A stretch of DNA of 64,000 nucleotides from a virus. The position numbers and the translations under genes were made by a program. The notes under the pieces were generated by a model, which saw nothing but the letters and a program-made list of their open reading frames with translations, was not told the DNA's origin and did no database searches. The stretch is from positions 10,549 through 74,548 of the IMG/VR virus record IMGVR_UViG_3300027832_000009; one strand, 5' to 3'. This document shows, piece by piece, positions 1,331 through 30,662 of this stretch (within the stretch, counting starts at the first letter, position 1; the number at the start of each line of letters is the position of its first letter).

Positions 1331-1720
1331 TCAGCGTACAGTGCTAGTCATGCCTCTGCAGAGGCTTCGTTTCTGCAGAGCTGCCTTTGTTTGCGCTGGT
1401 GTCGCAAACAATTCGTCGCGACTGTCACGGGCTGCCGCCGCATCACTGGCGATCTCCACCTTGGTGTTCTGCGGAATACGTCGGTAAAACACTCCAGGTT
1501 GATCGCACAGCATTCCTATTGCGGCCCCCACCTCATACCGCCCCGTTCGCCAGCAGAACTCGTCGCCCTTGATGAGGGCTTCGCCGACTTCCACTACTCG
1601 CCAGATGGTAGCCGGGCGGCGCCAGTAAATGGTATCCAACACGCCAATGCGGTGCAGCCACGCACCTATCGGAAACATGATCAGCATTCCCCATACTACA
1701 CCATATAGAAACTCAAGCAT
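1331..1720 (-). CDS. hypothetical protein with N-terminal hydrophobic helix
   Basis: 129 aa; contains a WRVVEVGEALIKGD module like those in 14259..15539; its 3' end contains a copy of the 31-nt element. Confidence 0.55.
   Translation of the reverse strand: MLEFLYGVVWGMLIMFPIGAWLHRIGVLDTIYWRRPATIWRVVEVGEALIKGDEFCWRTGRYEVGAAIGMLCDQPGVFYRRIPQNTKVEIASDAAAARDSRDELFATPAQTKAALQKRSLCRGMTSTVR
1348..1378 (-). repeat. solo copy of 31-nt hairpin element (family 1)
   Basis: minus strand reads CTGCAGA-AACGAAGCC-TCTGCAG-AGGCATGA. Confidence 0.85.
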
Positions 1721-1750
1721 ATCATCATCTCCTGCTGGATCACGATGGAA

Positions 1751-2179
1751 TCATGTGCGACTACGACTGTTCGATGTTACGTGCGCTTCTCCCCAGATAT
1801 TATCACACTGCTCCTTTATCGCAGTACGCAGATCAACCTCCATTTTGTTCATTTTCACCCGGCGGTCGGCTACCACCTCAGAGATAGCCTGCTCCATGAA
1901 CTGTCTCTTGTTTTCGGCGTATTTCGACCACTTACCGCTGTGTGGCTCAAATGTCTTATTTTCCAAATAACCACCCTGCCCGCCAACGCAGCCAAATAGC
2001 TCGCTGACCGTACACATTCCGAATCCTCCTTCGAGATTATACTCAGGCCTACCTATTAGGATCATCTGTGTTCCTTCACGACACATATAGTACAGCACGG
2101 TATCGTTACCGTGGATTGTAGTTTTGAATGCCCAGATAGATCCCGCATCGGGGTAAGTGAATGTTTTCGTAACTTCCAT
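1751..2179 (-). CDS. hypothetical protein
   Basis: likely start MEVTKTF at 2179 after GGGGTG; lower-GC stretch. Confidence 0.55.
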   Translation of the reverse strand: MEVTKTFTYPDAGSIWAFKTTIHGNDTVLYYMCREGTQMILIGRPEYNLEGGFGMCTVSELFGCVGGQGGYLENKTFEPHSGKWSKYAENKRQFMEQAISEVVADRRVKMNKMEVDLRTAIKEQCDNIWGEAHVTSNSRSRT

Positions 2180-2219
2180 AATAAACACCCCTGCATACTC
2201 TCGAGCTAGGTGACGTTCG

Positions 2220-2247
2220 ACGGGCGGCACCCGAAGATGCCGCCCGT
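2220..2247. terminator. GC-rich hairpin, possible terminator
   Basis: ACGGGCGGCA/TGCCGCCCGT 10-bp stem just downstream of 2265..2429; no clear U-tract. Confidence 0.35.
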
Positions 2248-2264
2248 ACAAACATCGACAGAAA

Positions 2265-2429
2265 CTACTCCTCCGCTGCCCTATCGCGATTTTGTGACCA
2301 CGTCGCAAGCGAGCACATCGCATTTGCTGCGTTGCACGCCGCTTGCGAGAACTTCAGGGCATCATCAGACTTTTCAGCCTTTGCCGCTTTCTCAATCATC
2401 GACTCAACTGACTTTACTAACTCATTCAT
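2265..2429 (-). CDS. 54 aa small phage protein (below ORF-track cutoff)
   Basis: manual translation MNELVKSVESMIEKAAKAEKSDDALKFSQAACNAANAMCSLATWSQNRDRAAEE; GGAG RBS upstream. Confidence 0.6.
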   Translation of the reverse strand: MNELVKSVESMIEKAAKAEKSDDALKFSQAACNAANAMCSLATWSQNRDRAAEE

Positions 2430-2493
2430 CGGGTTCTATCTCCGCTAAATCGCCGTCAAACAAAATGTTATAACCGAGCGACGGTAAGCTCGA

Positions 2494-2727
2494 CTACAAA
2501 GCAACGTTCTCTACTGCATACTTAACTGCGTCGTTGATGGTGTCTGCCAGTGTTTCCCGGTTTGATGGGAACACAGCTTCTCCGCCGGTGCTGTTGTGCA
2601 GAACCACTTCAGCGCACCCGTTAGACAGGTTTACTATTACCTCTACGTTATCCGGTAGCTTGCTGCACGCATTGTCTACTGCTGCAGCCAACTTGGCGTT
2701 ATACAGCCTCGCTCCAATTGAATCCAT
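2494..2727 (-). CDS. hypothetical protein
   Basis: 77 aa ORF with AAAGGTGAG RBS. Confidence 0.55.
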   Translation of the reverse strand: MDSIGARLYNAKLAAAVDNACSKLPDNVEVIVNLSNGCAEVVLHNSTGGEAVFPSNRETLADTINDAVKYAVENVAL

Positions 2728-2836
2728 GTACTCACCTTTGTTACTCGTTACAGGTACGCACCGGCCGCCGCAGGCTCTGCTACGTCTGGCCGCTGGGTGC
2801 TACCCCAGCGGCAACTGTTGTTCTGAAAACTACGGG

Positions 2837-3043
2837 CTACGCACCCGTACAAATGCTAGTTACCGAGGACGACTCTTTCTCCGCAATCCGCATAGCCATC
2901 ATGATAAGCACAAGCTTGACCTCGCACTCCTCATCCGCTGCATCTGTCGTGGGAGCGTCCGCTGTAGCTCTGCGAAGGACTGCCGCGGCAGCTGGGTTTA
3001 GGTGGCTCAACGCCTCAGCCAACTTTTTCAAGTTAATAGCCAT
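2837..3043 (-). CDS. hypothetical protein
   Basis: 68 aa ORF with AAGGAAGG upstream. Confidence 0.5.
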   Translation of the reverse strand: MAINLKKLAEALSHLNPAAAAVLRRATADAPTTDAADEECEVKLVLIMMAMRIAEKESSSVTSICTGA

Positions 3044-3123
3044 ACTCTAACTCTAACCTTCCTTTTGTGTTTTTGTCTGTTGTGTGTGGTGTCAAAGTAT
3101 TTCCCACTGACCCACTTGTGTGA

Positions 3124-3495
3124 TTACTCGACTGGTGTGTCCGCCTCACAATCCCGACTCGCCAGCTCATACAGAGAATTGTTGAACTTTGCTATCTCCA
3201 GTTCTAGTTGTAGTCTCCTCGAATATAATGCCGGTTGTCCGTATATTTTCTGAAGTCTGTCTCGCAACATTCTGCAGCCCACTATCTGCTGCTGGATTAT
3301 TAGCAGCGTAGCAAATTCGCTGTGTTCAGCTAACCGAAGCATCATCGCCTCAGCTGTCGCCGTTAAGCTGTCGCACTCTCTCGCTATTACGCCCGCCACA
3401 TCGGACATTTGTGGCTCACCACCGTTAAACGGTACCTCAGTACCACCGCTACCCATGTGTGCCCTTGCTTGGATACGAAGCCCCCAAGTAGGCAT
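3124..3495 (-). CDS. hypothetical protein
   Basis: 123 aa ORF; start uncertain. Confidence 0.4.
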   Translation of the reverse strand: MPTWGLRIQARAHMGSGGTEVPFNGGEPQMSDVAGVIARECDSLTATAEAMMLRLAEHSEFATLLIIQQQIVGCRMLRDRLQKIYGQPALYSRRLQLELEIAKFNNSLYELASRDCEADTPVE

Positions 3496-3511
3496 ACTAT
3501 CGGGTCAAAGG

Positions 3512-3529
3512 TTCGTTATTCATAACCAA
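3512..3529. promoter_or_regulatory. intergenic GGTTATTAATAACC-type palindrome (imperfect copy)
   Basis: TTCGTTATTCATAACCAA directly after a stop codon. Confidence 0.45.
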
Positions 3530-4243
3530 CTACTGGAAGTAGGTTAGGTTATCCGGCTCGCGATGTAGTTTCTGCCGCTCCCCGCGAGCCACATCCTCCG
3601 AGCCGGCGGCAGGAGCAGCAATAGAAGCTAATATCCTGCTATCCTCAGCAGCTATCATTCTTCGCATGATAGGATCCAGCAGAGTGGGTTGTGGCGTGAT
3701 CGTTAGGTGATCGCCCGCACTCTTGAATCTATCCGTGTAACTATCTGGTACTGCGTCTGTGAATACCTTCACCAGATGCTCCAGCAACATACACCTGCTG
3801 CACCACGGGTTAACCTGATCACGCAGCTCGTCTAGCGGCGCGTCGCGTAAACTTTCTGGCAGCAGTCGCCGATCCGGGTCGGCTGATCGCAGAGCTTCCA
3901 GCTCTGTTTCCGCCTGCTTATGAGCTCGACGGCACATCCCAGCAAGTACGAGGGCCTCCTCCCACGAAACATTAACATCTGAACCGTGTGAGAAACCTGC
4001 GAAAGCTGGTGCGGGCTCCATCGCCGCTTGTACAGCCTGCCCCACCACCGCTACCTCCGGAGGTACCGGATCGTGCGGTCGTAACCCGTGCATTTTGAAC
4101 TGCTGCTGGAGATGTAGATCCAGCCAACGTGCCACAACTCGGCTGATCGTGATGGTTACCAGATCAACTGGTTCGGTTTTGCCTGATTCTTGGTGCTGCT
4201 CTACTACCACTGAGTCCTCCTGTTTGATTGCCTGTTTTTGCAT
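3530..4243 (-). CDS. hypothetical protein
   Basis: likely start MQKQAIK at 4243 after AGAGGAG RBS. Confidence 0.6.
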   Translation of the reverse strand: MQKQAIKQEDSVVVEQHQESGKTEPVDLVTITISRVVARWLDLHLQQQFKMHGLRPHDPVPPEVAVVGQAVQAAMEPAPAFAGFSHGSDVNVSWEEALVLAGMCRRAHKQAETELEALRSADPDRRLLPESLRDAPLDELRDQVNPWCSRCMLLEHLVKVFTDAVPDSYTDRFKSAGDHLTITPQPTLLDPIMRRMIAAEDSRILASIAAPAAGSEDVARGERQKLHREPDNLTYFQ

Positions 4244-4346
4244 GTCCAGTCTCCTCTGTTTCTCGTTATCTCGTAATTCCGTGGTGCTGTTACACAATTT
4301 TTTACCTGTGCAGTTGACTCGCATCAGGTTCAGCGTACAGTGCTAG

Positions 4347-4377
4347 TCATGCCCCTGCAGAGGCTTCATTTCTGCAG
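4347..4377 (-). repeat. solo copy of 31-nt hairpin element (family 1)
   Basis: minus strand CTGCAGA-AATGAAGCC-TCTGCAG-GGGCATGA; a further about 17 bp flank (CTAGCACTGTACGCTGA) is shared with the 1348 copy. Confidence 0.85.
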
Positions 4378-4380
4378 ATA

Positions 4381-4668
4381 TTAGCGTCTTCTTGTAGTCG
4401 TTGAGATGGTGGCGTCGCCGTCACCACCACCGTTACCGTTGCTGCCGCCGTTGTAACCGTTGCCGAAGCCGAAGCCGAAGCCGAAGCCGCTGTCGTAGCC
4501 GGAGCCGGAGCCGGCACCTCTGCCGCTGTCATAGCCGGAGCCGTAGCCGAAGCCGTAGCCGAAGCCATAGCCGTCGCTGGCGCCGTAGCCGATGCCATAG
4601 CCGTAGCCGCTGCCATAGCCGTAGTTGCCTACAAGTTTCAAGGTGTTGCAGCCTGGGCCTGCGATCAT
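4381..4668 (-). CDS. Gly/Tyr/Ser/Asn-rich small protein, paralog 1
   Basis: start MIAGPG overlaps the upstream stop (ATGA); GYG repeats; ends TISTTTRRR. Confidence 0.6.
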   Translation of the reverse strand: MIAGPGCNTLKLVGNYGYGSGYGYGIGYGASDGYGFGYGFGYGSGYDSGRGAGSGSGYDSGFGFGFGFGNGYNGGSNGNGGGDGDATISTTTRRR

Positions 4669-4988
4669 TTCAGCCCCCAGTTTTCCGATACCGGAACGGA
4701 GCAAATCTCCGACCCTGCCGGGATCTCGACATCATTCTCCAGCGGTCGCAGGAATACCTTAGGTGACAACGGGTTCGATAGCATCCCATCGAACCCAACT
4801 TCTTCCCATTTGAAGACAAGGATCGCTCTGCTCAGGAAGATCCTGCCGTCCTCCCGCCGAGCATCCCCAGCGAAGATCCACCCGCGATCCACCACAACTA
4901 CAGCCCTGCTTCCAGTCGGCCGCGGTACTGGAACTGAGTCTGCTCGGACATACGTAACACCATTGATCACTACTGTTTGCTCGATCAT
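4665..4988 (-). CDS. conserved phage protein (DUF6948-like, tentative)
   Basis: INGVTYVRAD and VVVVDRGWIFAG motifs; this type of gene commonly precedes Gly-rich ORFs in phages. Confidence 0.55.
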   Translation of the reverse strand: MIEQTVVINGVTYVRADSVPVPRPTGSRAVVVVDRGWIFAGDARREDGRIFLSRAILVFKWEEVGFDGMLSNPLSPKVFLRPLENDVEIPAGSEICSVPVSENWGLK

Positions 4989-6908: not shown

Positions 6909-9900
6909 TCATGTAGCTGCTATCAGATTGAACTTTTTGTCGCCAGCAAGCCACAGCTGAGCCTGCTCGCACGTCATGATGGTAGATGGAACACCCATCG
7001 TAACCATCTTACCAGTCACACAGCCAGCAACAAGCCTCTGTGAATTGTCTGCCAATCGGTACAACGCTTCTGGTGTGTTGCTGATCGGGTTTGTCATGCT
7101 GTGCACACACACCGCACCAGACTCTTCAATATACCTGGCCCACCCAAACCGGGTGATTCGGATAGATCGGATGTCTTGATTCGTCTCCTCGTTGATCTGC
7201 GCAACCGTTTGTGTCTCCGGTCGCATAACAATCTGCTCATCCACTCGTATGCCGTGAAGCGACCAGACCCCAAAACCATCACGGTACCGACACGCCATCC
7301 CTGTCTCGTTGTGCAGTCGCCCCGCTTCATCTCGGTGCAGCTCACTGTGCCGGTGCTGAAAAATGCACGCACCCTTATACGGCGCCCACCAGCCGCAGTG
7401 CTTGGCCAGCTCAAGCAGTCCGGAAAGTTTATCTGTAGCCTCCGTTAACCCGCAATGCTCGCGGAAAAATGCGTAATAAGATAACCACCCTACGTCGTGT
7501 GATCCAAAAACTTGATCGCTGACCTTATTCAGGAGCTGCTCTCGTAACTGCTCCGGGGTCTGCTCCGGGGTCTGCTCCGGGGTCTGATCGCTGACCTGCT
7601 CCAGGACCGGATCACCGACCTGCGCACTGACCGGGCCACCAACCTGAGCCCATGTCCGCGAGCTAACATAAACCCGGACCTGCTCCCGGACCTGATCCAT
7701 GATCGCCTTGTTGACCTGATCAGAGACCTGATTCGAGACCAAATCCTTGACCTGCTCCGTGACCAGCTCGCCAACCTGATCTAGGACCTGCCTCCAGATC
7801 TGACTCCAGCCCTGATCCAAGACCCGAGTACTGATCTGATCCCAGACATGCTCCCGCGCCTCGTCGCTAACCTTCGCATCGACCTGAGAACCGGCCTCAG
7901 TCCTGAGCATATCCCTGATCTGATCCCAGACCTGCTCCAGGACCAGATCACTGACCTGATCATTGACCGGACCAACGACCTGAGCATCTGCCAGCAAGTG
8001 GACATAACCCCGGGACTGCTCCGTGACCTGCCTGTTGACCTGAGCATCAACCTGATCAGCGACCTGATTCGAGACCTTCACCTGGACCGTCCCCATGGCC
8101 GTCTCGTTGAGCTGATCCTGGACTAGGTCCCGGATTTGCCTCAAGACCTGACCGGGGATCCAGCTCAGTACCTGATTCGCGACCGCCGCACTGACCTGCT
8201 GATTGACCTGCCCGTTGACCAGCTCCCTAGCCCGTGCATCGACCTGATCTCTGACCTGCTCCAGCACCTGATTACTAACCTGCTCCCGGATTTGGTCACT
8301 GACCACGCTGCTGACCTGATGGATAACCCGATCATTGACCTGATCCAAGACGTTCTTCCTGATCTGGCCCAAGACCTCGCCCGCGACCGGATCACTGACA
8401 CTCTCGCGAACCTGACTCCAGATCTGATCCCGTACCGTTGCAACGACCTGATCTCGGAGTTGCTCCCACACCTGTTCACGGACCAGCTCCTCGGCCTGAT
8501 CCGAGACCGTATCACCGACCTGCGCACTGACATAATTACTGATCTGATCCCTGATCTTCGCACTGACCTGCTCGCTGAGCTGCGCGTCGACCTGCGAACC
8601 GACCGGACTCCAGATCTGGTTCCAGACCTGACCCCAGACCTGATCACCGACCTGCTCCATGGTCGCCTCACTGACCAGCTCATGGACCTGACCCGAGACA
8701 GTATCCCGGACCTGCTCGCTGACCTGACCGCTGACACGCATCCGGATCTTCTCCCAGACTTGCTCCCGAACCTGCCCGCCGACTAGCATCCGGATCTGCC
8801 CCCAGACTTGATCACGAACCTGATCGCTGGACTGCTCCCGGACCTGATCTTGGACCTGCTGCCGGACCCCTGCACTGATCGCCGCATTGAGCTGATCGCT
8901 GACACCGTTCCGGACCTGATCCACGACCCGCTCGCCGACCTGATTTCGGACCTGATCCCGTACCGTTGCAACGACCCGCTCTCTGATCTGCTCCCAGACC
9001 TGATCTCGGATATGCTCCCCTACCTGCGAACTGACCTCGTCACCTGGAGTATTCAGGATGATCTCACGTGATCGCTCCCAGACCTGATCTGCCACCTGCC
9101 CGGTGACCCGCTCACGGACCGCTCTCCGAGCCGTCTCGCTGGGCTGCTCCCGGACCTCAGCCGCAACCGACTCGCTGAGCTGCTCCCCAACCTGCTCAAT
9201 GGCCTGCCCGCTGAGCTGCTCCCGGACCTGCTCCAAGACCAGCTCTTTTAGTTGTTCCCAAGCCTGACCCATGACATGGTTGCTGGACTGCTCCCGGACC
9301 ATCCTACGGACCGACTCGCTGGCCTGATCCATGACCTCGCCAGCGGCATGATTGTTGGCCATATTACGGACCTTACCCCAGACATGCTCACCGACGACAT
9401 GCTCGCCGACCTGCTCCCGGATCTGCTCACCGACGCTCTCGCGTACCTGAGCCGAGACCGGACCACGGACCTTACCCCAGACATGCTCACCGACCTGCCC
9501 ACTGATCAGCTCACTGATTTGTGCAGCGACCTGATTACTGACCTGGTTATGGGCCTCAGCCCAGACCTGCCCCCAGACACGAGTACCAACCTGCTCACCG
9601 ACCGGCTCGGCAACCCCAGCCCTGACATGCGCATCGACCTGACCGCGGACCTGGCCACTGGCCTGATCCTGGGCCTGCTCGCCGACCTGTTCCCGGATTC
9701 TGTCCCGGATCTGCCCCATGACCGGCTCGGCGACATGATCCCTGACCTGATCCAAGACTTCACTACTGAGCTTCTCGCAGAGCTTACCCCAGATCTGCCC
9801 CAAGACCTGCCCCAAGACCTGATCGCTGACTTTCTCGCCTGGGGTATGCGCAATCGCCTCTTGGGCTACCTCCCAGGCCTGCTCCCGGACCGGCCTCAAG

Positions 9901-11168
9901 ATCTGCTCCCGAACCGCGAGCGTATCATTGCCCGCCTCCCATATCTGATCACTGATATCATCGCCGACCTGTTCCCGGATCTGATCACGGATCTGATTAT
10001 CGATCCGACCCCAGATCTGCCAACGGACCTGCTCCCAGATCTCCTCCCGTATCAGCCCCGAGACCTGCGAGTGGAGCGCACCACTTACCTGATTGGTGAC
10101 CTGAGTATCGACACGATCACCGACCGGATCCAAGACCTGATCAGCGAGCTCATTCAGGACCTGCTCCTTGACCTCCTCGTTGACCATATCCAGTACCGGC
10201 CACGTGACCTGCTCGTGGATCATAGAATTGACCTGAGCACTGACCTGGTTGTCGAGCTGATCCAGGGCCTGCTCAACGAGCTCATCCCGGATCTGCTTAC
10301 CGACCTGCTCGCTGAGCGTATCATCGACCTGAGCACTGACCTGATCCAAAATCTGCCCCGCGACCTGCTGCCAGACCTGACCCATGACATGGAGCGCATC
10401 ACTGACCTGCCCGCTGACCTGCGCATCGACACTATCACCGACCTGAGCAGTGAGAGCATCACTGACCCCCCCGTTGACCATATCCCGTACCGGCCACGTG
10501 ACCCGATCGTTGATCATAGAACTGACCTGAGCACTGACCTGGTTGTCGAGCTGAGCCAAGACCTGCTCAGCGAGCTGATTCCTGATCTGCTTACCGACCT
10601 GCTCGGTGACCTGCTCGCTGACCGGATCACTGACACTCTCGCGAACCTGATTCCAGATCTGATCCCGTACCGTCTGCCAGATCTGATACACGATCCTATC
10701 GCCGACCTGTTCCTTGACCTGCTCGTTGAGCATATCATCGACCTGAGCGCTGGCCTGTTTGTCGACCTGACTCAAGACATGGTTCCGTACCTGCCCACCG
10801 ACCTGATCACTAACCGGCCTGGTGCTCTTACCCTTGACCTGCTGAATAACCCGATCCAAAACGCTATCACGGACCTGCGCCCAGGCCTTCGCCAAGATTT
10901 TATTCCTGACCTGGTGCTGGAGCCGCTCCATACCTTGATCCGAGGCAATAGACTGCAGTGCTACCGCCCCCATAGCCGCCGCTATGGGCGAATCGAAAAG
11001 AAGAAACAATTTGGGCGGCTCCAGCCCAGCTGCTACGTAGCACTCGATTGCAGCCGCTTTGGCCTTCTCGAAATCGCACGGCTCGCATGAGAGCCCTATC
11101 TTCAACCATTTCTCTGTGTGCAGCGGGAGCTGCGCGATCTGTTCTGGTGTGAGTTTTTCTAACTTCAT
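6909..11168 (-). CDS. DUF6745-domain protein with very long (D/E)QV(R/W/G) repeat insert
   Basis: N-terminal KLTPEQ...EKWLKIG...YVAAGLEPP; C-terminal GSHDVGWLSYY...CGWW...GRLHNETG...RYRDGFGVWSLHG; about 1150 aa of low-complexity xQVx sequence between them. Confidence 0.75.
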   Translation of the reverse strand: MKLEKLTPEQIAQLPLHTEKWLKIGLSCEPCDFEKAKAAAIECYVAAGLEPPKLFLLFDSPIAAAMGAVALQSIASDQGMERLQHQVRNKILAKAWAQVRDSVLDRVIQQVKGKSTRPVSDQVGGQVRNHVLSQVDKQASAQVDDMLNEQVKEQVGDRIVYQIWQTVRDQIWNQVRESVSDPVSEQVTEQVGKQIRNQLAEQVLAQLDNQVSAQVSSMINDRVTWPVRDMVNGGVSDALTAQVGDSVDAQVSGQVSDALHVMGQVWQQVAGQILDQVSAQVDDTLSEQVGKQIRDELVEQALDQLDNQVSAQVNSMIHEQVTWPVLDMVNEEVKEQVLNELADQVLDPVGDRVDTQVTNQVSGALHSQVSGLIREEIWEQVRWQIWGRIDNQIRDQIREQVGDDISDQIWEAGNDTLAVREQILRPVREQAWEVAQEAIAHTPGEKVSDQVLGQVLGQIWGKLCEKLSSEVLDQVRDHVAEPVMGQIRDRIREQVGEQAQDQASGQVRGQVDAHVRAGVAEPVGEQVGTRVWGQVWAEAHNQVSNQVAAQISELISGQVGEHVWGKVRGPVSAQVRESVGEQIREQVGEHVVGEHVWGKVRNMANNHAAGEVMDQASESVRRMVREQSSNHVMGQAWEQLKELVLEQVREQLSGQAIEQVGEQLSESVAAEVREQPSETARRAVRERVTGQVADQVWERSREIILNTPGDEVSSQVGEHIRDQVWEQIRERVVATVRDQVRNQVGERVVDQVRNGVSDQLNAAISAGVRQQVQDQVREQSSDQVRDQVWGQIRMLVGGQVREQVWEKIRMRVSGQVSEQVRDTVSGQVHELVSEATMEQVGDQVWGQVWNQIWSPVGSQVDAQLSEQVSAKIRDQISNYVSAQVGDTVSDQAEELVREQVWEQLRDQVVATVRDQIWSQVRESVSDPVAGEVLGQIRKNVLDQVNDRVIHQVSSVVSDQIREQVSNQVLEQVRDQVDARARELVNGQVNQQVSAAVANQVLSWIPGQVLRQIRDLVQDQLNETAMGTVQVKVSNQVADQVDAQVNRQVTEQSRGYVHLLADAQVVGPVNDQVSDLVLEQVWDQIRDMLRTEAGSQVDAKVSDEAREHVWDQISTRVLDQGWSQIWRQVLDQVGELVTEQVKDLVSNQVSDQVNKAIMDQVREQVRVYVSSRTWAQVGGPVSAQVGDPVLEQVSDQTPEQTPEQTPEQLREQLLNKVSDQVFGSHDVGWLSYYAFFREHCGLTEATDKLSGLLELAKHCGWWAPYKGACIFQHRHSELHRDEAGRLHNETGMACRYRDGFGVWSLHGIRVDEQIVMRPETQTVAQINEETNQDIRSIRITRFGWARYIEESGAVCVHSMTNPISNTPEALYRLADNSQRLVAGCVTGKMVTMGVPSTIMTCEQAQLWLAGDKKFNLIAAT

Positions 11169-11494: not shown

Positions 11495-12640
11495 TTACCT
11501 GCCGACACTTGCAGTCATTGCTGCTATTGCAGCCGGTCCAACCTTCTCAATCAGCTTCCGCTGCTGCTCTGGTGTCAGGTGTTTCCAGCCACCTTGAACA
11601 GCAGCCGCTGCCATATCCTTAGCATCCTGCGCGTTTTCTGGCCTCATAGCAGAGTACATTTGCTGTATCGGCCCAGCGTACGCAGCTGGGTCGTTGTACT
11701 CCATATGACCACCCAGATAGTTTTTACCCACCTGCTGCACACCTGACACAGCTGCAGCAGCCGGGCTTCTGTAATGCATTAGGGAATCCAGCATACCACG
11801 ACCCACAGCAGGTTTAGAGAGTTGATATTTCATCGCATCATTCAACGCCAGGCCGTACAACTCATCTCTGGATTTAGATGCGGTTACAGCAGCCTCGTCA
11901 CCCCCATGACCGAAAATATTTCGTTTCAATCTCCCGAGAGTTGCGTCCTGCAACGTGTACTGCTTGACCTTCTGCCCCTGCTCACTCAGCCTCCTTCTCT
12001 GATTAGGTGTCAGCCCAGCCTGCACACCATAATCGCTGGTCGTGTTGTAGATCGAATCGTTCACAACCTGATTCGCATCACTGAGGCCTTGAGCTCCCGA
12101 ATACACCAAGCCGGCAGCTGCGGCCTGATTCAGCCTACGCATACCCGGCACACCGTCAGCTGACAGCAGTTTTGCTGTGTTCATGGCTGGCCGCTGGCGA
12201 AATCTCTCACCTGCAGGCACGTTAGCGACAGTGTTGAGGGCTCTACCAGCACGACTCGGCAAAGGTTTGCCTATGTTCGCCGCTACCAACGCTGGTGCCG
12301 GTCTTGATCTGGGTGCCGCGACAGCCTTCACAGCAGGTGTCACAGCTGCTACAGCTCTGGTCGCCAACGACTTGGCTGGCGGCGTCGGTACCTTGTTCGC
12401 CATTGATGTGGTGATTGATTTCTGCTGCGCCGGTGTAGGCACACGCATCTGCCTGACCGGCGACTGTATCGGTGCAGCTCCAGGTCCTGCCACAGGCCTG
12501 CCCATTGTTTTGGAGGCTGTACGGGACAAGACTTTGGAAAGACCCTTCATGTTGATGGCCTGCTTCTGTAGCTGGCTATCTGGATGCGTCAACACATATA
12601 GACAGTGGACTGCCCGCAGATCCGTGAGGCTGTTGAACAT
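11495..12640 (-). CDS. Ala/Pro-rich hypothetical protein, possibly virion-associated
   Basis: likely start MFNSLTDL at 12640 after ACAGGAG RBS; lies directly downstream of repeat array 2. Confidence 0.65.
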   Translation of the reverse strand: MFNSLTDLRAVHCLYVLTHPDSQLQKQAINMKGLSKVLSRTASKTMGRPVAGPGAAPIQSPVRQMRVPTPAQQKSITTSMANKVPTPPAKSLATRAVAAVTPAVKAVAAPRSRPAPALVAANIGKPLPSRAGRALNTVANVPAGERFRQRPAMNTAKLLSADGVPGMRRLNQAAAAGLVYSGAQGLSDANQVVNDSIYNTTSDYGVQAGLTPNQRRRLSEQGQKVKQYTLQDATLGRLKRNIFGHGGDEAAVTASKSRDELYGLALNDAMKYQLSKPAVGRGMLDSLMHYRSPAAAAVSGVQQVGKNYLGGHMEYNDPAAYAGPIQQMYSAMRPENAQDAKDMAAAAVQGGWKHLTPEQQRKLIEKVGPAAIAAMTASVGR

Positions 12641-12677
12641 GTTTTCTCCTGTGCTTGTTTGTCCGGCTGCACGCGAT

Positions 12678-13279
12678 GCCCTGCTTCGAACCCGCAAGGC
12701 TGGGATTGTTATTGTGGATCCTGGACTGTGCTGCCGTGCTATGAACCCGCATGGCTGGGATTGTTGTGAGAGCGTATATGTGAGGAGCTGTGTACTGTGA
12801 CCTGCTGCCCAATATGCTCTGCTTCGAACCCGCAGGGCTGGGATTGCTATGAGAGCGTATATGTGAGGACTTGTGCAGTTGCCCTGCTATGAACCCGCAA
12901 GGCTGGGATTGTTGTGAGAGCTTATATGTGAGGAGCTGTGCACTGTGACCTAGAGCTGTCACGATGCGTACCAACACCCCTGTTGCACTGCTTCGAACCC
13001 GCAAGGCTGGGATTGTTGTTGAACGTGTTTTCTTCTGTGCTTGCTTGCCAAGCATACGGCAACTTCGGCGGTTTCGGTGCCCTGCTTCGAACCCGCAGGG
13101 CTGGGATTGTTGTGAGAGCGTATATGTGAGGACTTGTGCAGTTGCCCTGCTATGAACCCGCATGGCTGGGATTGTTGTGAGAGCGTATACGTGAGAGCTT
13201 ATATGTGAGAGAGTATATGTGAGGAGCTGTATACTTTGGCCCCCTGTTATCCTGCTTCGAACCCGCAAGGCTGGGATTG
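12678..13279 (+). repeat. array of 8 copies of 31-nt hairpin element (family 2) interspersed with GAGAGCGTATATGTGAGGA subrepeats
   Basis: GCCCTGC-TTCGAACCC-GCA(A/G/T)GGC-TGGGATTG at 12678, 12733, 12816, 12881, 12985, 13079, 13144, 13249. Confidence 0.9.
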
Positions 13280-13337
13280 CTGTCAAAATGTGCTGTGAGA
13301 GCGTATATGTGCGAGTGTATATGTGAGAGCTCACAGG

Positions 13338-14114
13338 TTAGGGCGAGAGCCGAGAACCGATGTTGGCCCCGACTGTGCCGCCAGCTGCACCACCAACCAG
13401 TCCGCCAACACCAGCCGCCAATCCTCCAGCTGCACCCAACGCCCCACCACCCAAAGAACCACGAAGTGCGGCCATCATCCGGCTCCGCTTCTTGCCCTCC
13501 TCATCTACACCTGTATCGCTAAACATGCCGTGCAGCCCGCCAATTGCAGCACCGGCAGCCGCGCCAGCACCAGTCACACCACCAACCCTGCCCATCGCAG
13601 CACCACCCGCCAGCTGGCGAATCCGTTGCTGAATACCTGCGTATGGCGACACGTCAGCTTGTGGGATCTCTGCAGCTGGAGGTGCGATAGGAGCAGCAGG
13701 CGGTTGCATGCCTGCAATCTTCCTTTGCCCTGCTACGAACCCGCAAGGCTGGGATGAATCTTTACTCGAAACAACGATTTTCCCAGAAGAAGTTGCCTGC
13801 ATACCCTTCCCTGCAAGCCTTGCCCTGCCAATCTTAAATCCTTTCGCTACACCTGCTGCGTGGTTGCCATCCACAGTCCCAGCCGGCCCCAACGCTCCGT
13901 GTGTTTCTATAGGGTTGCCTGCTGGACTGCCTGGCAACCCTGGAAACGCTGTAGCCTTTCCTCGCTGCGTCGAAAGCCCTGTTTGCGGTATTCCACTCCC
14001 CATCACATGTCGTGCCCCAGCCTGCTGTCTTGGTGCTGTGTTACCCGGTGCAACCATTGGTGAAACAAGTGCACTTTTTCTCCACGCCCTGATCGCTGCA
14101 AGTGCATCCGACAT
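13338..14114 (-). CDS. Gly/Ala-rich hypothetical protein, possibly virion-associated
   Basis: likely start MSDALAA at 14114; C-terminal GGxxGAAxG helices; contains an element copy at 13727. Confidence 0.6.
   Translation of the reverse strand: MSDALAAIRAWRKSALVSPMVAPGNTAPRQQAGARHVMGSGIPQTGLSTQRGKATAFPGLPGSPAGNPIETHGALGPAGTVDGNHAAGVAKGFKIGRARLAGKGMQATSSGKIVVSSKDSSQPCGFVAGQRKIAGMQPPAAPIAPPAAEIPQADVSPYAGIQQRIRQLAGGAAMGRVGGVTGAGAAAGAAIGGLHGMFSDTGVDEEGKKRSRMMAALRGSLGGGALGAAGGLAAGVGGLVGGAAGGTVGANIGSRLSP
13727..13757 (+). repeat. solo family-2 element inside a coding sequence
   Basis: GCCCTGC-TACGAACCC-GCAAGGC-TGGGATGA. Confidence 0.8.
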
Positions 14115-14258
14115 AATAAATCCTTTGTTTCCGCTGGTTTGACTTGATTGGTAGCAAGGGGTGGAGTTCAGGGTTATAGTCTGCCACACAGAGGCAAGGA
14201 ACACAATACCGCAGAGGTATATCCGTGCCAGCAACGCAAAACACAGGGAGTACAACAG

Positions 14259-15539
14259 ATGACAGAAGCTGCAGAATCCTTCCCCACCCACACACACCAA
14301 TTAATTGACAGTATGAAGGCCCCATACAGGCTGATGACCGAAGGGGAGGTCATTTTTCCCAGCTGTTACATTGGTAATACCAGCACAGGTACGTGGGAGC
14401 TCACTACTGCGGCTTTCTGGCACTCTGAGGCTGTTCCTACAGCATTCCAGCTATTCTGTGCTCCTTCGTCTCCTGAGGACTACAAGATCGTCTACGGGGA
14501 TCAGGTTATCTCTGAGGATGCTGTGTACTGGCATCAGGGGCACTGGATCCCTGTTCCTGTCTGCTGGTACGGTCTTGGCGTCTCCAAGTACTGGCACAGC
14601 GACCCTGGCAGCATAAAGCAGACTGTCAAAGGAAACTCTGCTGTCTATTCAATGTACCGTCAGAGTGCGATGGTCGCACACCCTGTTCGATCGACGTGGC
14701 GGACGTTATCCGCACCTCCGGGACACAGACATCTACAGATCGGTGAGGTCGTCAGACAGAAAGACCTGCGTACGAGTGCTGTAGACAACAATAAATGGGC
14801 TGACGTGAACGCACCAGTGATCGGAACTACCATCACAGGGGTCACCATAGAGAGCGCTCGCTTTATTCGCCCTATCCCTGTGCATTGGGTCAATTGGTAC
14901 GTGAACACCAGACCGGGCTTCGGGGCTAATGCGAACGCTGGGACATCCCTGAGCACTGCTCTGGGTAACATTATCGCTGTTCGCAAGAAAATGCAGGAAA
15001 TTCAGCATAACACAGGGCAACCATGCTATGGGATTATCTGGGATACGTTCGGCACAGCGTTGCAGGTCTTCGACAAACCAGTCAACACTCAGGATATGTC
15101 GCCCACCATCGCAACAATCGGGGATTCTGCTGTCCCTGAGTCTATCCGATGGAACATGGAGTACTCCGTCTACCTCGGAGAGCCAATAACCCATAACGGG
15201 CTGCTGTCACTAGCCGAGAAGGATATGCCGGCCAGACACAGAATACTGAGCGCTGGCGAAGTCAGTCAGGATGGGGACCTCATCTTCACACTGGCTCCCG
15301 GGAAGCGATTACCGTTTATCTGGCAGCCTGTGGCACCAAAGTTGTGGTATCAGCCCGGATTACGCCAATACATCTTCTGTCGGCACTCAGATGCTGTCTG
15401 CAACATGGATGCCCCGGAAGTACGGTTAACCTTCCTCACCGAACGGGTGGCCAGTCTGGAGCAGGGGCAGCAGGACCTCAGAGGCCAAATCCACTCCCTG
15501 CTCCAGCGATTAGCCATCCTGACACCAAAGGCCAGCTAA
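14259..15539 (+). CDS. hypothetical multi-module protein (one of only two plus-strand genes)
   Basis: start after CAGGGAG RBS; repeated (Y/H)RxLxxGEV-type modules; C-terminal coiled coil. Confidence 0.65.
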   Translation: MTEAAESFPTHTHQLIDSMKAPYRLMTEGEVIFPSCYIGNTSTGTWELTTAAFWHSEAVPTAFQLFCAPSSPEDYKIVYGDQVISEDAVYWHQGHWIPVPVCWYGLGVSKYWHSDPGSIKQTVKGNSAVYSMYRQSAMVAHPVRSTWRTLSAPPGHRHLQIGEVVRQKDLRTSAVDNNKWADVNAPVIGTTITGVTIESARFIRPIPVHWVNWYVNTRPGFGANANAGTSLSTALGNIIAVRKKMQEIQHNTGQPCYGIIWDTFGTALQVFDKPVNTQDMSPTIATIGDSAVPESIRWNMEYSVYLGEPITHNGLLSLAEKDMPARHRILSAGEVSQDGDLIFTLAPGKRLPFIWQPVAPKLWYQPGLRQYIFCRHSDAVCNMDAPEVRLTFLTERVASLEQGQQDLRGQIHSLLQRLAILTPKAS

Positions 15540-16282: not shown

Positions 16283-16313
16283 TTACAGATACGAGGCCCC
16301 TGCACAGGCGCTG
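16283..16313 (+). repeat. solo family-1 element
   Basis: TTACAGA-TACGAGGCC-CCTGCAC-AGGCGCTG. Confidence 0.75.
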
Positions 16314-16601: not shown

Positions 16602-16632
16602 CTGCAGAAATGAAGCCTCTACAGAGGCGTGA
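16602..16632 (+). repeat. solo family-1 element
   Basis: CTGCAGA-AATGAAGCC-TCTACAG-AGGCGTGA. Confidence 0.8.
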
Positions 16633-17276: not shown

Positions 17277-17307
17277 TTACAGATACGAGGCCCCTGCACA
17301 GGCGCTG
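17277..17307 (+). repeat. solo family-1 element, part of an 85-bp duplication
   Basis: identical to the 16283 copy. Confidence 0.75.
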
Positions 17308-17547: not shown

Positions 17548-18975
17548 TCATATCTTGGGTATCGCGCTGGTGTCTTCGACAAAATCAAAATAGAACCGCG
17601 GCCTGTGTTGGAAGCACAGAGATCCGACAGCACCATCAGATTTACGCGTCACCACACAGTACGGGGCGATAAACGACCTAACCTCGAAATCCTCAGTCAG
17701 CTGGGCGGTGTCCCATGCTTGCCCGAACAACGCCTCGAGCTCCTCCCGTGTGCGGGGATTCGCATTAATCTCCTCCAGCTGCTTCATTCGCAGCGCCTCC
17801 ACTTCTCGTGGATCGGGTTTAGCTTTTGCCATTGTGGTCTTCTCCTTCAGGATAGGTTTGTAAAGTGACTGATCTAGTAAAGCGATTCCCGTTGCGTGCA
17901 CCGTCACAGGTGGTGTCGAATAGACCTCACCAGACGGAATATCGTTGATAGCTGCCTCGACACAGCCCGTAGCTACCGTCACATTACGCCAACCGCTGGC
18001 ACTGCGTAGTAGGGCCAAATACGTCAACATGCCGCTGGTGCGGATGTTCTCACCATAAAACACAGGTTGCTGCATGGGCCACAGCACCACAGCCGACCGC
18101 CCTGGTGATGGCCTTGGTATTTCGCACCATGTGAACACATTGGAATCCAGCCAGTGGTTGTACTGCTGGAGCTCCTTATTCAAGATCTTATTTGCCCACA
18201 CTTTACCACGACGCATAGCCTCACTAATAGATACGTCATCCTCAGGGAAAGCATCGGCCAACCTGTTCGCAACATCTCGCCACGTTACAAAGAAGTACCC
18301 ATCAATAGCCTCATCAACTACAGTGGGTGTTATTATTACAGGCTGCATGCGGCCGTCCTTGTATTTCACAAACACCACCGCAGCTGTGAGGCTCTGCAAT
18401 AAATGGATCTTCTGCCGCAGGTTAGTCATAAGTGCGTAACGTGGACGCAGCATCGACCGCCCCCCATAGATTTTGGTAGTGACACCCCTTGTGTTGACCT
18501 GCCATCTCCTCAGCATGTATTCGAGTATCTTCGGCACACTGCCGTCATCCCCAGTGTGTGCCGATAGCATAGACCTGCTCAGCAGTGCCTGATCCAATAA
18601 CTCGTGTGTGACCGTCGACAGGCTTCCACCCAGCGGAGATGAGCCGTACATGGTAACTGTAGGCTTAAGCATGTGACGCCTAGTACCCGTTTGCCAGCTG
18701 TCGGTATAAAACAAGTTATAAAAATACTCAGCGTCAGGTGTTCTTCTCCCCTCTTCTACACAAACAAACTTTGTATACCGGTAGTCACCGCCATCACCAG
18801 CAATCACATTACGGCCGGGTAGTGTCACACCCTCTGAAGCTGCAAACACAAGTTCCCTGTACCTGCTGTTATCAAGACGAGGGTTACGCTGCCTGCTCGG
18901 CGATAACTTATCACCTAGGTCGCACCGCACCGGTATCAACAAACGCTCAGCTGTCGCCTGCATTGTAATGTGCAC
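17548..18975 (-). CDS. paralog-family protein fused in frame to a small conserved phage protein
   Basis: ELQQYNHWLDSNVF family motif; internal GAAGGAG RBS and ATG at 17832 begin an FGQAWDT...FQHRPRFYF module. Confidence 0.7.
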   Translation of the reverse strand: MHITMQATAERLLIPVRCDLGDKLSPSRQRNPRLDNSRYRELVFAASEGVTLPGRNVIAGDGGDYRYTKFVCVEEGRRTPDAEYFYNLFYTDSWQTGTRRHMLKPTVTMYGSSPLGGSLSTVTHELLDQALLSRSMLSAHTGDDGSVPKILEYMLRRWQVNTRGVTTKIYGGRSMLRPRYALMTNLRQKIHLLQSLTAAVVFVKYKDGRMQPVIITPTVVDEAIDGYFFVTWRDVANRLADAFPEDDVSISEAMRRGKVWANKILNKELQQYNHWLDSNVFTWCEIPRPSPGRSAVVLWPMQQPVFYGENIRTSGMLTYLALLRSASGWRNVTVATGCVEAAINDIPSGEVYSTPPVTVHATGIALLDQSLYKPILKEKTTMAKAKPDPREVEALRMKQLEEINANPRTREELEALFGQAWDTAQLTEDFEVRSFIAPYCVVTRKSDGAVGSLCFQHRPRFYFDFVEDTSAIPKI

Positions 18976-28761: not shown

Positions 28762-29196
28762 CTACATAAACAACAACGGGTTAGCCGCCGCCACAACCTG
28801 TGTAGGTACTGTCAGGAACAACAGCATCATAACAATCTTGGAGGGGTGGCCAGCTTCAGCTGCCTGCCATACTTGCTGATGGTAATGTACAGCTAACTGT
28901 GTCAGCAATACATAGGCCTTAGCGTCGGGTAACAAGAACGCTGCAGAATGACCGCACTCCCCATCTTCGCCGACTGTCGCCGACATGACGCACACAATAC
29001 AAAAATCACTATCGTCACCCACCCAAGGGGTAGCCAACGAAGCGATAGTGTACCGCTGCAACCAGAGAAGTACAGCCTCGGCCGGTAAAAGGTGACTATC
29101 CGTAACTGCCCCGCTCGGGGCAAGTACTGTGTACTCATCTATTATCGACTGCAACGCTGCTCCCGTCCGCCCAAAGACATCTGTCATACTTTTCAT
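28762..29196 (-). CDS. hypothetical protein
   Basis: 144 aa ORF with ATGA overlap. Confidence 0.55.
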   Translation of the reverse strand: MKSMTDVFGRTGAALQSIIDEYTVLAPSGAVTDSHLLPAEAVLLWLQRYTIASLATPWVGDDSDFCIVCVMSATVGEDGECGHSAAFLLPDAKAYVLLTQLAVHYHQQVWQAAEAGHPSKIVMMLLFLTVPTQVVAAANPLLFM

Positions 29197-30662
29197 CGTA
29201 TGGTTAGTGTCCTGTAAGCGCCGAGGTCTTCAGCACCCAACTGTACGCCGCGTTGGGAGAACAGTATGTGCTGCGTCACCCCCATTCGGCGAGCGAATAA
29301 GGGGCTGGTTGGGTTACCAGCTGCCAGGTCCAAGTCCGCGCAATCCAGCTTGTCAGCCAGGTGCGGATACTTGCACAAGCAAACCCCTACAGCAAGGTCA
29401 TCCTTCTGCTGGTCACTTAACTCTGTGACCGGCGGTATGACCGTCCGCATTTCTTCTCGCGGGTTTAGCAGACTTGGCAGTATCGCCTCGTCGCTGTAAA
29501 ACGACTCGAGCGGTCCAAGGAGGTCTCGGATGGTTGGTATCAACGATACCAACTTATCCGTAATTCCCCCCTCAACCTCCCGGGCAGACTCCTCATCCCA
29601 GCGTACATCGAGCTCTTTTGCCGATTCGGCCTGTAGCTGCAGCTCGTTAAGCTGCCGCACACAAGACAAGACATCGACGACAGGCTCGCCATTGCTGTCC
29701 TCCCCCTGCATGTATGCAGCCAGCCGAGCTGTATTCATCACAGCCAGCGTAGTACCGCAAAAGCGGTACGGGTTAGGTACCTGCGAACCACATAGCTCCT
29801 TGAAGTCCTCAAAGATCTCTGTGTTTGGCAGCCTGCTCTTACACAGGTAGTCAGCCCGCACCAACCAGTGATTGGTTGGGTTACCGGCGACCATTGGTTG
29901 CCGACACATGATCTGCCGTATAGTTCTGCCGTCTATCCTTCGAGACAACACCTCTTGAAGGTTTGCCGCCGCGTAAGTTACATCACACCTTGCGATGCCT
30001 GCGGCCACTACCGCCGCGACCCGGCCACCAATTGCGACGTTAGATGGGTCGCATTTCACTAGCAGTTTCGGCATAACCGGAACGGTTTCCGGTTGCACCT
30101 GTGCTTGTGCTGCTTGCACACCCTCTCGGAGCGTCTGCAAGCCAAGCCACGCCCATTGCATATCGGCATCTTCGATAAGGTCTGGTGTGACCGGTGCTGC
30201 ATTGATGATCTTACCTGTAGCCTCCGGAAAGGCTACCCACCCGAGATTCTTGAATCCGTGGGTACTATACTGTACCCAACCGTCTACAAGATTTCCTCGG
30301 ATCTCCCACAACGGGAGGTCGATCACACTGCGTGTACCCGGTGCGTCGAGCCTTCCCCGATATGTCACCACCGCGGCGGCGGTCTGGCCCAGTGGGGCCA
30401 CTATGTCCTTCACATCCCATATCATCGTGCCATGGGGCCACGGGGATGCGCCCCACTGCAAACCGCGAACAATAGCGAGCTGCTTGTGGATAATTGGGAA
30501 CGTGTACCGCGTCTCCGCCCTCTCTGCTGAGGTGGTGGGTTTCCGGAACACTCGCTTTGGGTGTCCCTCTCCGGCTGCGATTACTTCGGTGATCGCTGCG
30601 GTAATTGCTGCTGTTACTGTTGACTGCGTCATGACTGAGTCTTTCAAAAGAAAGCTATCCAA
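29193..30662 (-). CDS. hypothetical protein
   Basis: 489 aa ORF. Confidence 0.75.
   Translation of the reverse strand: MDSFLLKDSVMTQSTVTAAITAAITEVIAAGEGHPKRVFRKPTTSAERAETRYTFPIIHKQLAIVRGLQWGASPWPHGTMIWDVKDIVAPLGQTAAAVVTYRGRLDAPGTRSVIDLPLWEIRGNLVDGWVQYSTHGFKNLGWVAFPEATGKIINAAPVTPDLIEDADMQWAWLGLQTLREGVQAAQAQVQPETVPVMPKLLVKCDPSNVAIGGRVAAVVAAGIARCDVTYAAANLQEVLSRRIDGRTIRQIMCRQPMVAGNPTNHWLVRADYLCKSRLPNTEIFEDFKELCGSQVPNPYRFCGTTLAVMNTARLAAYMQGEDSNGEPVVDVLSCVRQLNELQLQAESAKELDVRWDEESAREVEGGITDKLVSLIPTIRDLLGPLESFYSDEAILPSLLNPREEMRTVIPPVTELSDQQKDDLAVGVCLCKYPHLADKLDCADLDLAAGNPTSPLFARRMGVTQHILFSQRGVQLGAEDLGAYRTLTIR

Follow-up and report, generated by a model that had tools for sequence, protein, structure and literature searches.

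What element is repeated at positions 12678–13757 of the stretch of viral DNA analyzed here, and what reads it? The stretch, referred to below as the window, is 64,000 nucleotides (nt) long and corresponds to bases 10549–74548 of an 87-kb virus record from IMG/VR (IMGVR_UViG_3300027832_000009; G000), which is rated 44% complete. In the initial annotation, made from the letters alone, the repeated unit was described as a hairpin with a 7-9-7-8 layout (arm, loop, arm, tail), sharing its loop and tail with a second array located some 50 kb away, near 63 kb. The analysis indicates that the hairpin is probably (at a probability of about 0.72) the repeat-derived guide-RNA scaffold of a type V-M CRISPR-Cas12m system, encoded on the minus strand, and that the arrays would yield CRISPR RNA (crRNA)-like RNAs.

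A common pseudoknotted element in two arrays

Consensus, repeat and motif scans recovered all of the eight intergenic copies and the one in-gene copy that had been listed at 12678–13757 (family 2, array 2). With up to three mismatches allowed, the family-2 consensus has eight matches, all of them on the plus strand (12678, 12816, 12881, 12985, 13079, 13144, 13249 and 13727; none expected in shuffles), and the ninth copy, at 12733, was picked up by the repeat and motif scans. When read on the plus strand, the loops of the nine copies are TTCGAACCC (five copies), TATGAACCC (three copies) and TACGAACCC (the in-gene copy), while the tail is TGGGATTG in the eight intergenic copies and TGGGATGA in the in-gene one. 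The arms originally assigned to this family, GCCCTGC and GCAGGGC, are perfect only in the copy at 13079; most copies have GCAAGGC, which results in a C·A mismatch on the plus strand and a G·U pair on the minus strand. The copies of array 2 are predicted to form RNA hairpins of −8 to −15 kcal/mol.

The layout, the loop and the tail are common to array 2 and to the array near 63 kb (family 1, array 1) beyond chance, as had been claimed: the joint motif TWYGARSCC-N7-NGGSAYTG was found 14 times in forward and not once in reverse orientation in the 87-kb record, and the backwards control gave no matches. A joint covariance model of both arrays recovered 13 copies at 62423–63781 and nine copies at 12678–13757, plus further single copies. 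In an alignment of 32 copies from both arrays, single sites and other records, 86.6% of the cells of the 7-bp stem are paired, compared with 59.5% in shuffles and 25–46% when the partners are slid, and compensatory changes on both sides were observed in six out of seven stem pairs. The two arrays represent divergent subfamilies of a single structured element, which selection on pairing has maintained and whose reader is most likely a phage-encoded factor. The accompanying statement that the arms of the two families have no sequence in common was slightly overstated: the arms are largely unrelated, but the G6–C18 pair is invariant in all 32 aligned copies.

The element had been read on the plus strand, with its last 8 nt taken for a 3′ tail. 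However, the functional strand is the opposite one, that of the genes, on which the element reads 5′-CAAU(SCC)N / 7-nt arm / (GGS)YUCRWA / 7-nt arm / A, and the presumed tail is the 5′ strand of a pseudoknot, in which SCC of the CAAU-SCC box pairs with GGS, the first three bases of the 9-nt loop. The order of box, arm, GGS and arm, in which the linker has 1 nt and the second loop 6 nt, is that of a classical H-type pseudoknot; on the plus strand, the pseudoknot is geometrically impossible, and that version was dropped. Among 63 distinct copies, the 3-bp pseudoknot is Watson–Crick paired in 185 out of 189 cells and covaries as GCC/GGC (45 copies), CCC/GGG (14 copies) and ACC/GGT (one copy), with GCC/GGC being found in family 1 and CCC/GGG in family 2. 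The base following the 3′ arm is A in 28 out of 33 copies. On the minus strand, family-1 copies read CAAUGCCU / CUGCAGA / GGCUUCGUA / UCUGCAG / A, with GCUCAGA (partner UCUGAGC) and CCRCAGA as arm variants, and family-2 array copies read CAAUCCCA / GCCYUGC / GGGUUCRWA / GCAGGGC / A, the full form being CAAUCCCA-GCCCUGC-GGGUUCGAA-GCAGGGC-A. A search for loci related to the proteins neighbouring the arrays revealed a single close relative of the phage (G002), which is 97% identical to G000 at the nucleotide level and collinear with it over 54 kb. In one G002 copy, a CCC/GGG pseudoknot occurs together with GCUCAG arms of the family-1 type, indicating that pseudoknot type and arm type assort independently.

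Relationship to the Cas12m guide-RNA scaffold

Contrary to the initial view that the element is undescribed, it matches the repeat scaffold of type V-M Cas12m, both in published crRNAs and in arrays located beside cas12m. In Table S5 of Bigelyte et al. 2024, where crRNAs are given as the 5′ repeat followed by the spacer, those of Tf and Un read UUG-CAAUGCCU-(A/G)GCUCAG-(A/G)GG...CUGAG-AC, that of Mk CAAACCCU...GGGUU, and that of Mm CAUAGCCC...GGGC. The Tf and Un crRNAs correspond to family 1, the CAAUGCCU box of which is identical to theirs, and the Mk crRNA corresponds to family 2; both pseudoknot types, GCC/GGC and CCC/GGG, are present among the published Cas12m orthologues.

When viral contigs were scanned with the family-1 core, a provirus record (G001) was found, in which three exact matches lie within a regular array of a 36-nt repeat (~9 copies) with unique spacers of 36–38 nt. 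The 648-amino-acid (aa) protein adjoining this array is a Cas12m (PDB 8pm4; E-value, 1e-71; Cas12m2, 8hhl; E-value, 4e-64). In a second phage contig (L034, 105 kb), 11 perfectly regular 36-nt repeats, GGCG-CAAAGCCU-GCUCAGC-GGCUUCAUU-GCUGAGA-C, separated by spacers of 36–38 nt, come after a gene for a Cas12m that is 45% identical to the one of the window's lineage, and lie on the strand of this gene. The model built only from the phage copies matches all 11 of these repeats on the cas12m strand, which fixes both the orientation and the family of the element.

The close relative G002 encodes a 663-aa Cas12m (PDB 23vw, "CRISPR-associated DNA-binding protein Cas12m"; E-value, 3e-44), and scaffold copies are found 85 nt upstream and 15 nt downstream of its gene, on the cas12m strand. 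The scaffold is located on the cas12m strand in G001, G002 and L034, and in the window it shares the strand of the flanking genes. Aligned to G002, the left end of G000 falls at ~46.4 kb, and cas12m starts at 49.8 kb of G002, so the G000 contig stops ~3.4 kb short of the gene; from this 97%-identical relative, we infer that cas12m is also present in the window's own phage. The RuvC-I Asp of 23vw (aiDlG) is a His in the Cas12m of G002 (aaHlG), and the C-terminal DxD-NA motif is kept. According to the literature, Cas12m proteins of the H-D-D class bind DNA and do not cut it (PMC10442227, PMC11013384), and the phage-lineage protein, with His in place of the RuvC-I Asp, fits a predicted non-cutting DNA binder. 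The gene directly upstream of cas12m in G002 (L026:7242–7679; also L036:1947–2384) codes for a protein with an RNA-chaperone-like Phage_ProQ_C_like domain (PF24203), a possible partner in RNA handling.

In the structures of Cas12m2 and GoCas12m, the crRNA scaffold is composed of a pseudoknot and a stem; Cas12m2 contacts the sugar-phosphate backbone of the stem, with specific recognition of the loop and the terminal bases (PMC10442227, PMC11013384). Contact to the backbone only in the stem, combined with base-specific reading of loop and box, would allow the arms to drift freely, with compensation, around fixed loop and box bases. As far as can be judged from sequence, both arrays would be transcribed together with the leftward operons, and Cas12m would bind each scaffold, recognizing bases in the loop and the pseudoknot and touching only the backbone of the stem. 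The array transcript would then be cut into crRNA-like RNAs, in which the 17–33 nt after each scaffold would serve as guides for DNA binding and silencing.

The hairpins might instead act as DNA, that is, as single-stranded DNA sites for an HUH/Rep or RAYT-like enzyme, as replication-origin iterons, or as a TIGR-type array read by a Nop-domain protein. Other notes by the same reader pointed this way, proposing an HUH/Rep-like reader encoded at 61310–62374 and an IS110/Nop-like reader encoded at 55287–56225, and the 63-kb region does harbor an 11-nt tandem repeat and an AT-rich stretch. However, neither proposed reader could be substantiated, as the proteins encoded at 61310–62374, 60076–61302 and 55287–56225 have no HUH, Rep or Nop match in Pfam or PDB, and no Nop domain was found in either phage record (G000, G002). 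PHROGs, Pfam and PDB searches of the proteins flanking both arrays gave no HUH, Rep, Nop or nuclease signal. With the homology to Cas12m crRNAs accounting for every conserved position, a function at the DNA level is extremely unlikely.

Several more specific candidates were considered and rejected. Hairpin sites of the repetitive extragenic palindrome (REP)/RAYT or HUH-Rep kind fail on the neighbouring proteins, which match no HUH/Rep family in Pfam or PDB, and a TIGR-Tas array on the variable segments, which are 7 nt long and mutually complementary, on the units, which are not contiguous, and on the missing Nop domain. Mimicry of a tRNA T-loop fits family 2 only, N4-type hairpin promoters differ in loop size and context, and a CsrA-type sponge was dropped because of the lack of GGA in the loop.

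Organization of the arrays

The locations of the arrays, of the single copies discussed below and of the adjacent genes are summarized in Table 1.

Table 1. Copies of the scaffold element and associated features in the window (window coordinates).
Feature	Position	Strand	Details
Single copy, antisense type	1336..1378	+	Scaffold on plus strand, antisense to genes; conserved 5′ flank GUACAGUGCUAG
Single leader copy, third arm type	3467..3497	-	Arms ACUUGGG/UCCAAGC; AUG at +10
Second single copy, antisense type	4335..4377	+	Same 12-nt 5′ flank GUACAGUGCUAG
Gene downstream of array 2	11495..12643	-	382 aa, no assigned function; AUG 37 nt after last array-2 repeat, AGGAG before AUG
Array 2 (family 2), eight 31-nt scaffolds	12678..13279	-	Starts 12678, 12733, 12816, 12881, 12985, 13079, 13144, 13249
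Inter-repeat segments of array 2	12709..13337	-	~13–24 nt of variable sequence directly after repeat, then conserved pre-repeat tract
Leader duplicate inside array 2	13017..13047	-	90% duplicate of leader and first codons of gene 11495–12643
Gly/Ala-rich gene upstream of array 2	13338..14300	-	Array 2 begins right after its stop codon
In-gene copy (family 2)	13727..13757	-	UCAUCCCA / GCCUUGC / GGGUUCGUA / GCAGGGC; inside open frame 13338–14300
Single leader copy	16283..16313	-	GGGGAGAAGGG and AUG at +17; 239-aa open reading frame (ORF)
Single leader copy	16602..16632	-	Start codon ~18–22 nt downstream; 86-aa ORF
Single copy	17277..17307	-	Identical to the copy at 16283
Array 1 (family 1)	62423..63781	-	13 model matches and one degenerate copy; spacing 53–69 nt from 63321

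The conserved pre-repeat tract consists of 14-nt units, CUCACAUAUACGCU, which are confined to array 2 and fill part of each of its units. The duplicate of the downstream gene's leader inside the array indicates that array 2 has grown by segmental duplication. It contains eight units in G000 and five in G002, and the extra block includes the copy of this leader. One of the guide segments differs strongly between the two phages, with conserved flanks, and the guide AACUGCACAAGUCC is present twice. The copy at 13727 is truly located within a gene, as had been stated: the surrounding frame is open and conserved across it in both G000 and G002. This copy is followed by AAGGAAG-N-AUG at +17 and borders a 165-aa indel, in which G002 (28786–29650) has ~165 extra codons without a counterpart in G000, directly after the copy (window 13709–13757). 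Given this indel and the whole-unit differences in array 2 between G000 and G002, the element may double as a recombination junction.

Array 1 terminates 48 nt before the AUG of gene 61310–62374. Two features interrupt it: a perfect 11-nt tandem repeat, TGTTACGTGCG (7.2 copies at 63225–63303), is situated between the copies at ~63205 and 63321, and a 500-bp gap with a long inverted repeat (GGGGCTATATGT ... ACATATAGCCCC) followed by an AT-rich stretch is found at 62560–62760, which might serve gene 61310–62374 as a promoter or regulatory region. A scan of both arrays for sigma-70 promoters revealed no sites, and terminator-like sites in both arrays are near shuffle expectation.

Several observations weigh against a guide-RNA function of the arrays. 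The array periods are irregular, 55–105 nt in array 2 and 53–69 nt or more in array 1; with the repeat taken as 36 nt, the inter-repeat lengths amount to 17–33 nt in the regular part of array 1 and to 19–69 nt in array 2. The regular period and unique spacers of V-M arrays are not seen, the inter-repeat segments being partly duplicated or related, with the 14-nt tract filling the units. In ~290 kb of related phage DNA (the phage, G002 and four other loci), no protospacer was detected, and the only matches were self, orthologous and paralogous ones along with 13–18-mers at chance level. There is no cas12m within the 87-kb record, and only one cas12m gene was seen for two repeat families. A single tolerant effector serving both families is plausible, and a second cas12m paralogue may exist in the unsequenced part of the genome. 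In addition, G·U and A·C mismatches in the stem (21 and 27, respectively) display no strand bias, so that the orientation rests on homology and synteny. Cas1 was found neither in G000 nor in G002, with control genomes matched as expected, and the lack of an adaptation module in these two phages is usual for V-M systems.

These irregularities could also mean that the arrays are decaying or selfishly spreading repeat remnants without function, which persist perhaps only as recombination sites for module shuffling. Irregular spacing, duplicated units, the change in unit number (eight and five) between relatives and an indel boundary exactly at the in-gene copy would be expected of such remnants, and even the canonical array of L034 trails into degenerate repeats. 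On the other hand, compensation keeps stem and pseudoknot intact across at least four arm types, the loop and pseudoknot bases are nearly invariant where the flanks diverge, and the copies show a strong bias in orientation and position, all of which makes functionless remnants unlikely. The degenerate end of the L034 array (L034:12789–13615) is made up of ~8 irregularly spaced repeats and is a possible intermediate towards the irregular arrays of the window.

Single copies across the genome

A structure scan (box, pseudoknot and at least six of the seven stem pairs) detected 32 copies in G000 and 22 copies in G002, compared with 0–1 in reversed controls. Most of the single copies are located on the gene strand, 8–50 nt upstream of a Shine–Dalgarno sequence and a start codon. 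It is therefore conceivable that the copies act mainly in cis on phage mRNAs, with Cas12m at the leader handles processing, stabilizing or repressing messages, and that the arrays are multiplied leaders or sponges buffering Cas12m. Besides the position of the single copies, several findings agree with such a role. In the gene-called locus L036, eight out of ten model matches are wholly intergenic, with intergenic gaps making up ~12% of the DNA. In both arrays, the final unit is a leader in its own right, with AUG at +37 (gene 11495–12643) and +48 (gene 61310–62374). Array units are gained and lost by duplication, and guide searches of related phage DNA gave no targets. However, Cas12m is known as a crRNA-guided DNA binder, a cis role on mRNA being unpublished, and the strong divergence of one guide segment between near-identical phages with conserved flanks is a pattern typical of spacers. 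Taken as the main function of the element, action in cis is doubtful; readings as decoys, as decaying repeats or as recombination scars are weaker than this one.

A tentative extension of the guide-RNA scaffold reading is that the Cas12m handle has become a regulatory part used across the genome of this phage lineage, placed in many mRNA leaders and multiplied into two leader arrays that differ in their stems. Through it, the non-cutting Cas12m might act in a programmed manner on transcripts or genes of the phage itself, by processing, marking or silencing them, and serve not only in defence against foreign DNA.

The copies might also be RNA decoys, similar to Racr-like solitary repeats or mini-arrays, that soak up a Cas12m encoded by the host and thereby protect the phage. 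Viral solitary repeats mimicking host repeats are a known anti-CRISPR strategy, and an unrelated phage (G004) carries 3–4 good scaffold copies with no cas12m in its 72 kb. However, the lineage of the window has a cognate cas12m flanked by the same element, and so differs from decoys, for which no effector is expected in the virus. Moreover, the family-2 core gave 113 single matches in 185,579 species genomes, which is at or below chance expectation, and none has a credible hairpin; there is accordingly no known host array with a family-2 repeat. A decoy function is thus very unlikely. Within ~30 nt after one of the scaffold copies of G004 (L028, ~18799–18900), there is a stretch similar to a tRNA T-arm (GGTTCGATTCC), and this copy may precede a tRNA gene.

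The two plus-strand copies of the window belong to an antisense subtype, which comprises four near-identical 43-nt copies (GTACAGTGCTAG plus scaffold), the other two being located at 3141–3183 and 82779–82821 of G000. All four are situated at the 3′ ends of minus-strand ORFs, and their flank contains a −10-like TACAGT. They might represent separate small transcription units.

Comparison with known systems

The element resembles the scaffold of type V-M Cas12m systems (MmCas12m2, GoCas12m and Ms/Tf/Un/Mk; PMC10442227, PMC11013384) in its length of ~31–36 nt, the CAAYGCC-type box, the 1-nt linker, the 6–7-bp stem, the loop, which begins with GG(C/G) and forms a pseudoknot with the box, and the short A/C end before the guide. 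As in these systems, there is no trans-activating crRNA (tracrRNA), adaptation genes are not found nearby, and the effector is ~600–660 aa long and has a non-canonical RuvC site. In contrast to the published scaffolds, the first stem pair of the phage element is a canonical C–G or G–C instead of G·A, and its last base is A rather than C. Unlike in V-M systems, two repeat families with unrelated arms and different pseudoknots (GCC/GGC and CCC/GGG) coexist in one genome, and the arrays are irregular, located inside operons and not beside cas12m. The element itself is already known; new in the window are two repeat families within one genome, with arms that are unrelated and pseudoknot triplets that differ, organized in irregular arrays inside operons.

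A phage-encoded Cas12m was previously reported only in one 2026 preprint (10.64898/2026.09.14.751636), in which the Cas12m of myxophage MV-1, with a regular array, is claimed to be the first from a phage, and in which the MV-1 protospacers were not identified. Like MV-1 and L034, the phage of the window belongs to a Cas12m-encoding phage lineage without cas1, cas2 and cas4, in which the repeat lies on the strand of the effector gene. MV-1 and L034 have one consensus repeat, unique 36–38-nt spacers and an array adjoining cas12m, whereas here the arrays are situated tens of kb from the effector, with variable periods, duplicated inter-repeat sequences and dozens of single copies.

Shmakov et al. 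2023 (10.1101/2023.03.03.530964) described standalone repeats, cr-like RNAs and regulatory mini-arrays, mostly of type I and V-A. The copies analyzed here are similar to such standalone repeats and viral solitary repeat units in that CRISPR repeats occur outside canonical arrays; the known ones are used in regulation or counter-defence, in some cases in phages. However, those are usually 1–2 repeats inside cas loci or anti-CRISPR (acr) islands, while the element of the window is of type V-M, occurs about 30 times per 85 kb, in mRNA leaders and in two arrays, and has its cognate effector in the phage lineage. TIGR-Tas systems (PMC12045711) likewise consist of phage-borne tandem units, in which short conserved boxes alternate with short variable segments, and are difficult to detect with CRISPR tools, but unlike the arrays of the window they have a contiguous 36-nt period (edge repeat, 9-nt spacer A, loop repeat, 9-nt spacer B), non-complementary spacers and a Nop-domain Tas protein.

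With this assignment, a formerly unknown structured motif becomes a testable system, in which a known effector that binds RNA and DNA is paired with its RNA handle. Provided that the arrays are functional, the copies represent a natural mutagenesis series showing which scaffold positions are needed by Cas12m, and their arrangement suggests that the phage may employ a CRISPR effector in its own gene control, or in conflict with the host or other phages.

Genomic context

The phage of the window is very distant from cultured phages. Blastn and tblastn searches against the latter gave only distant matches to PolA and no relatives of the array region or of its neighbouring protein. The phage encodes a family-A DNA polymerase and SbcCD-like proteins, with the terminase large subunit gene located just beyond the window. 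Nearly all genes of the window are on the minus strand, including those flanking both arrays. Scans of the window for Rfam families (at gathering thresholds) and for tRNAs gave no matches. Sequencing runs holding DNA of this phage originate from freshwater, lake and estuary metagenomes, and all are DNA runs, none RNA; a metagenome scan returned a G002-like contig of 138.7 kb as the sole match.

The gene at 6909–11168 of the window is full of 12- and 24-nt periodic repeats and codes for a 1419-aa protein with matches to DUF6745, DUF445 and CTD9 (ABC-3C). At 1635–4914 of G000, beyond the window, lie two large ORFs of 479 and 580 aa without Pfam or PDB matches; they are mostly missing from G002 and show weak similarity to one ORF of the unrelated phage G004.

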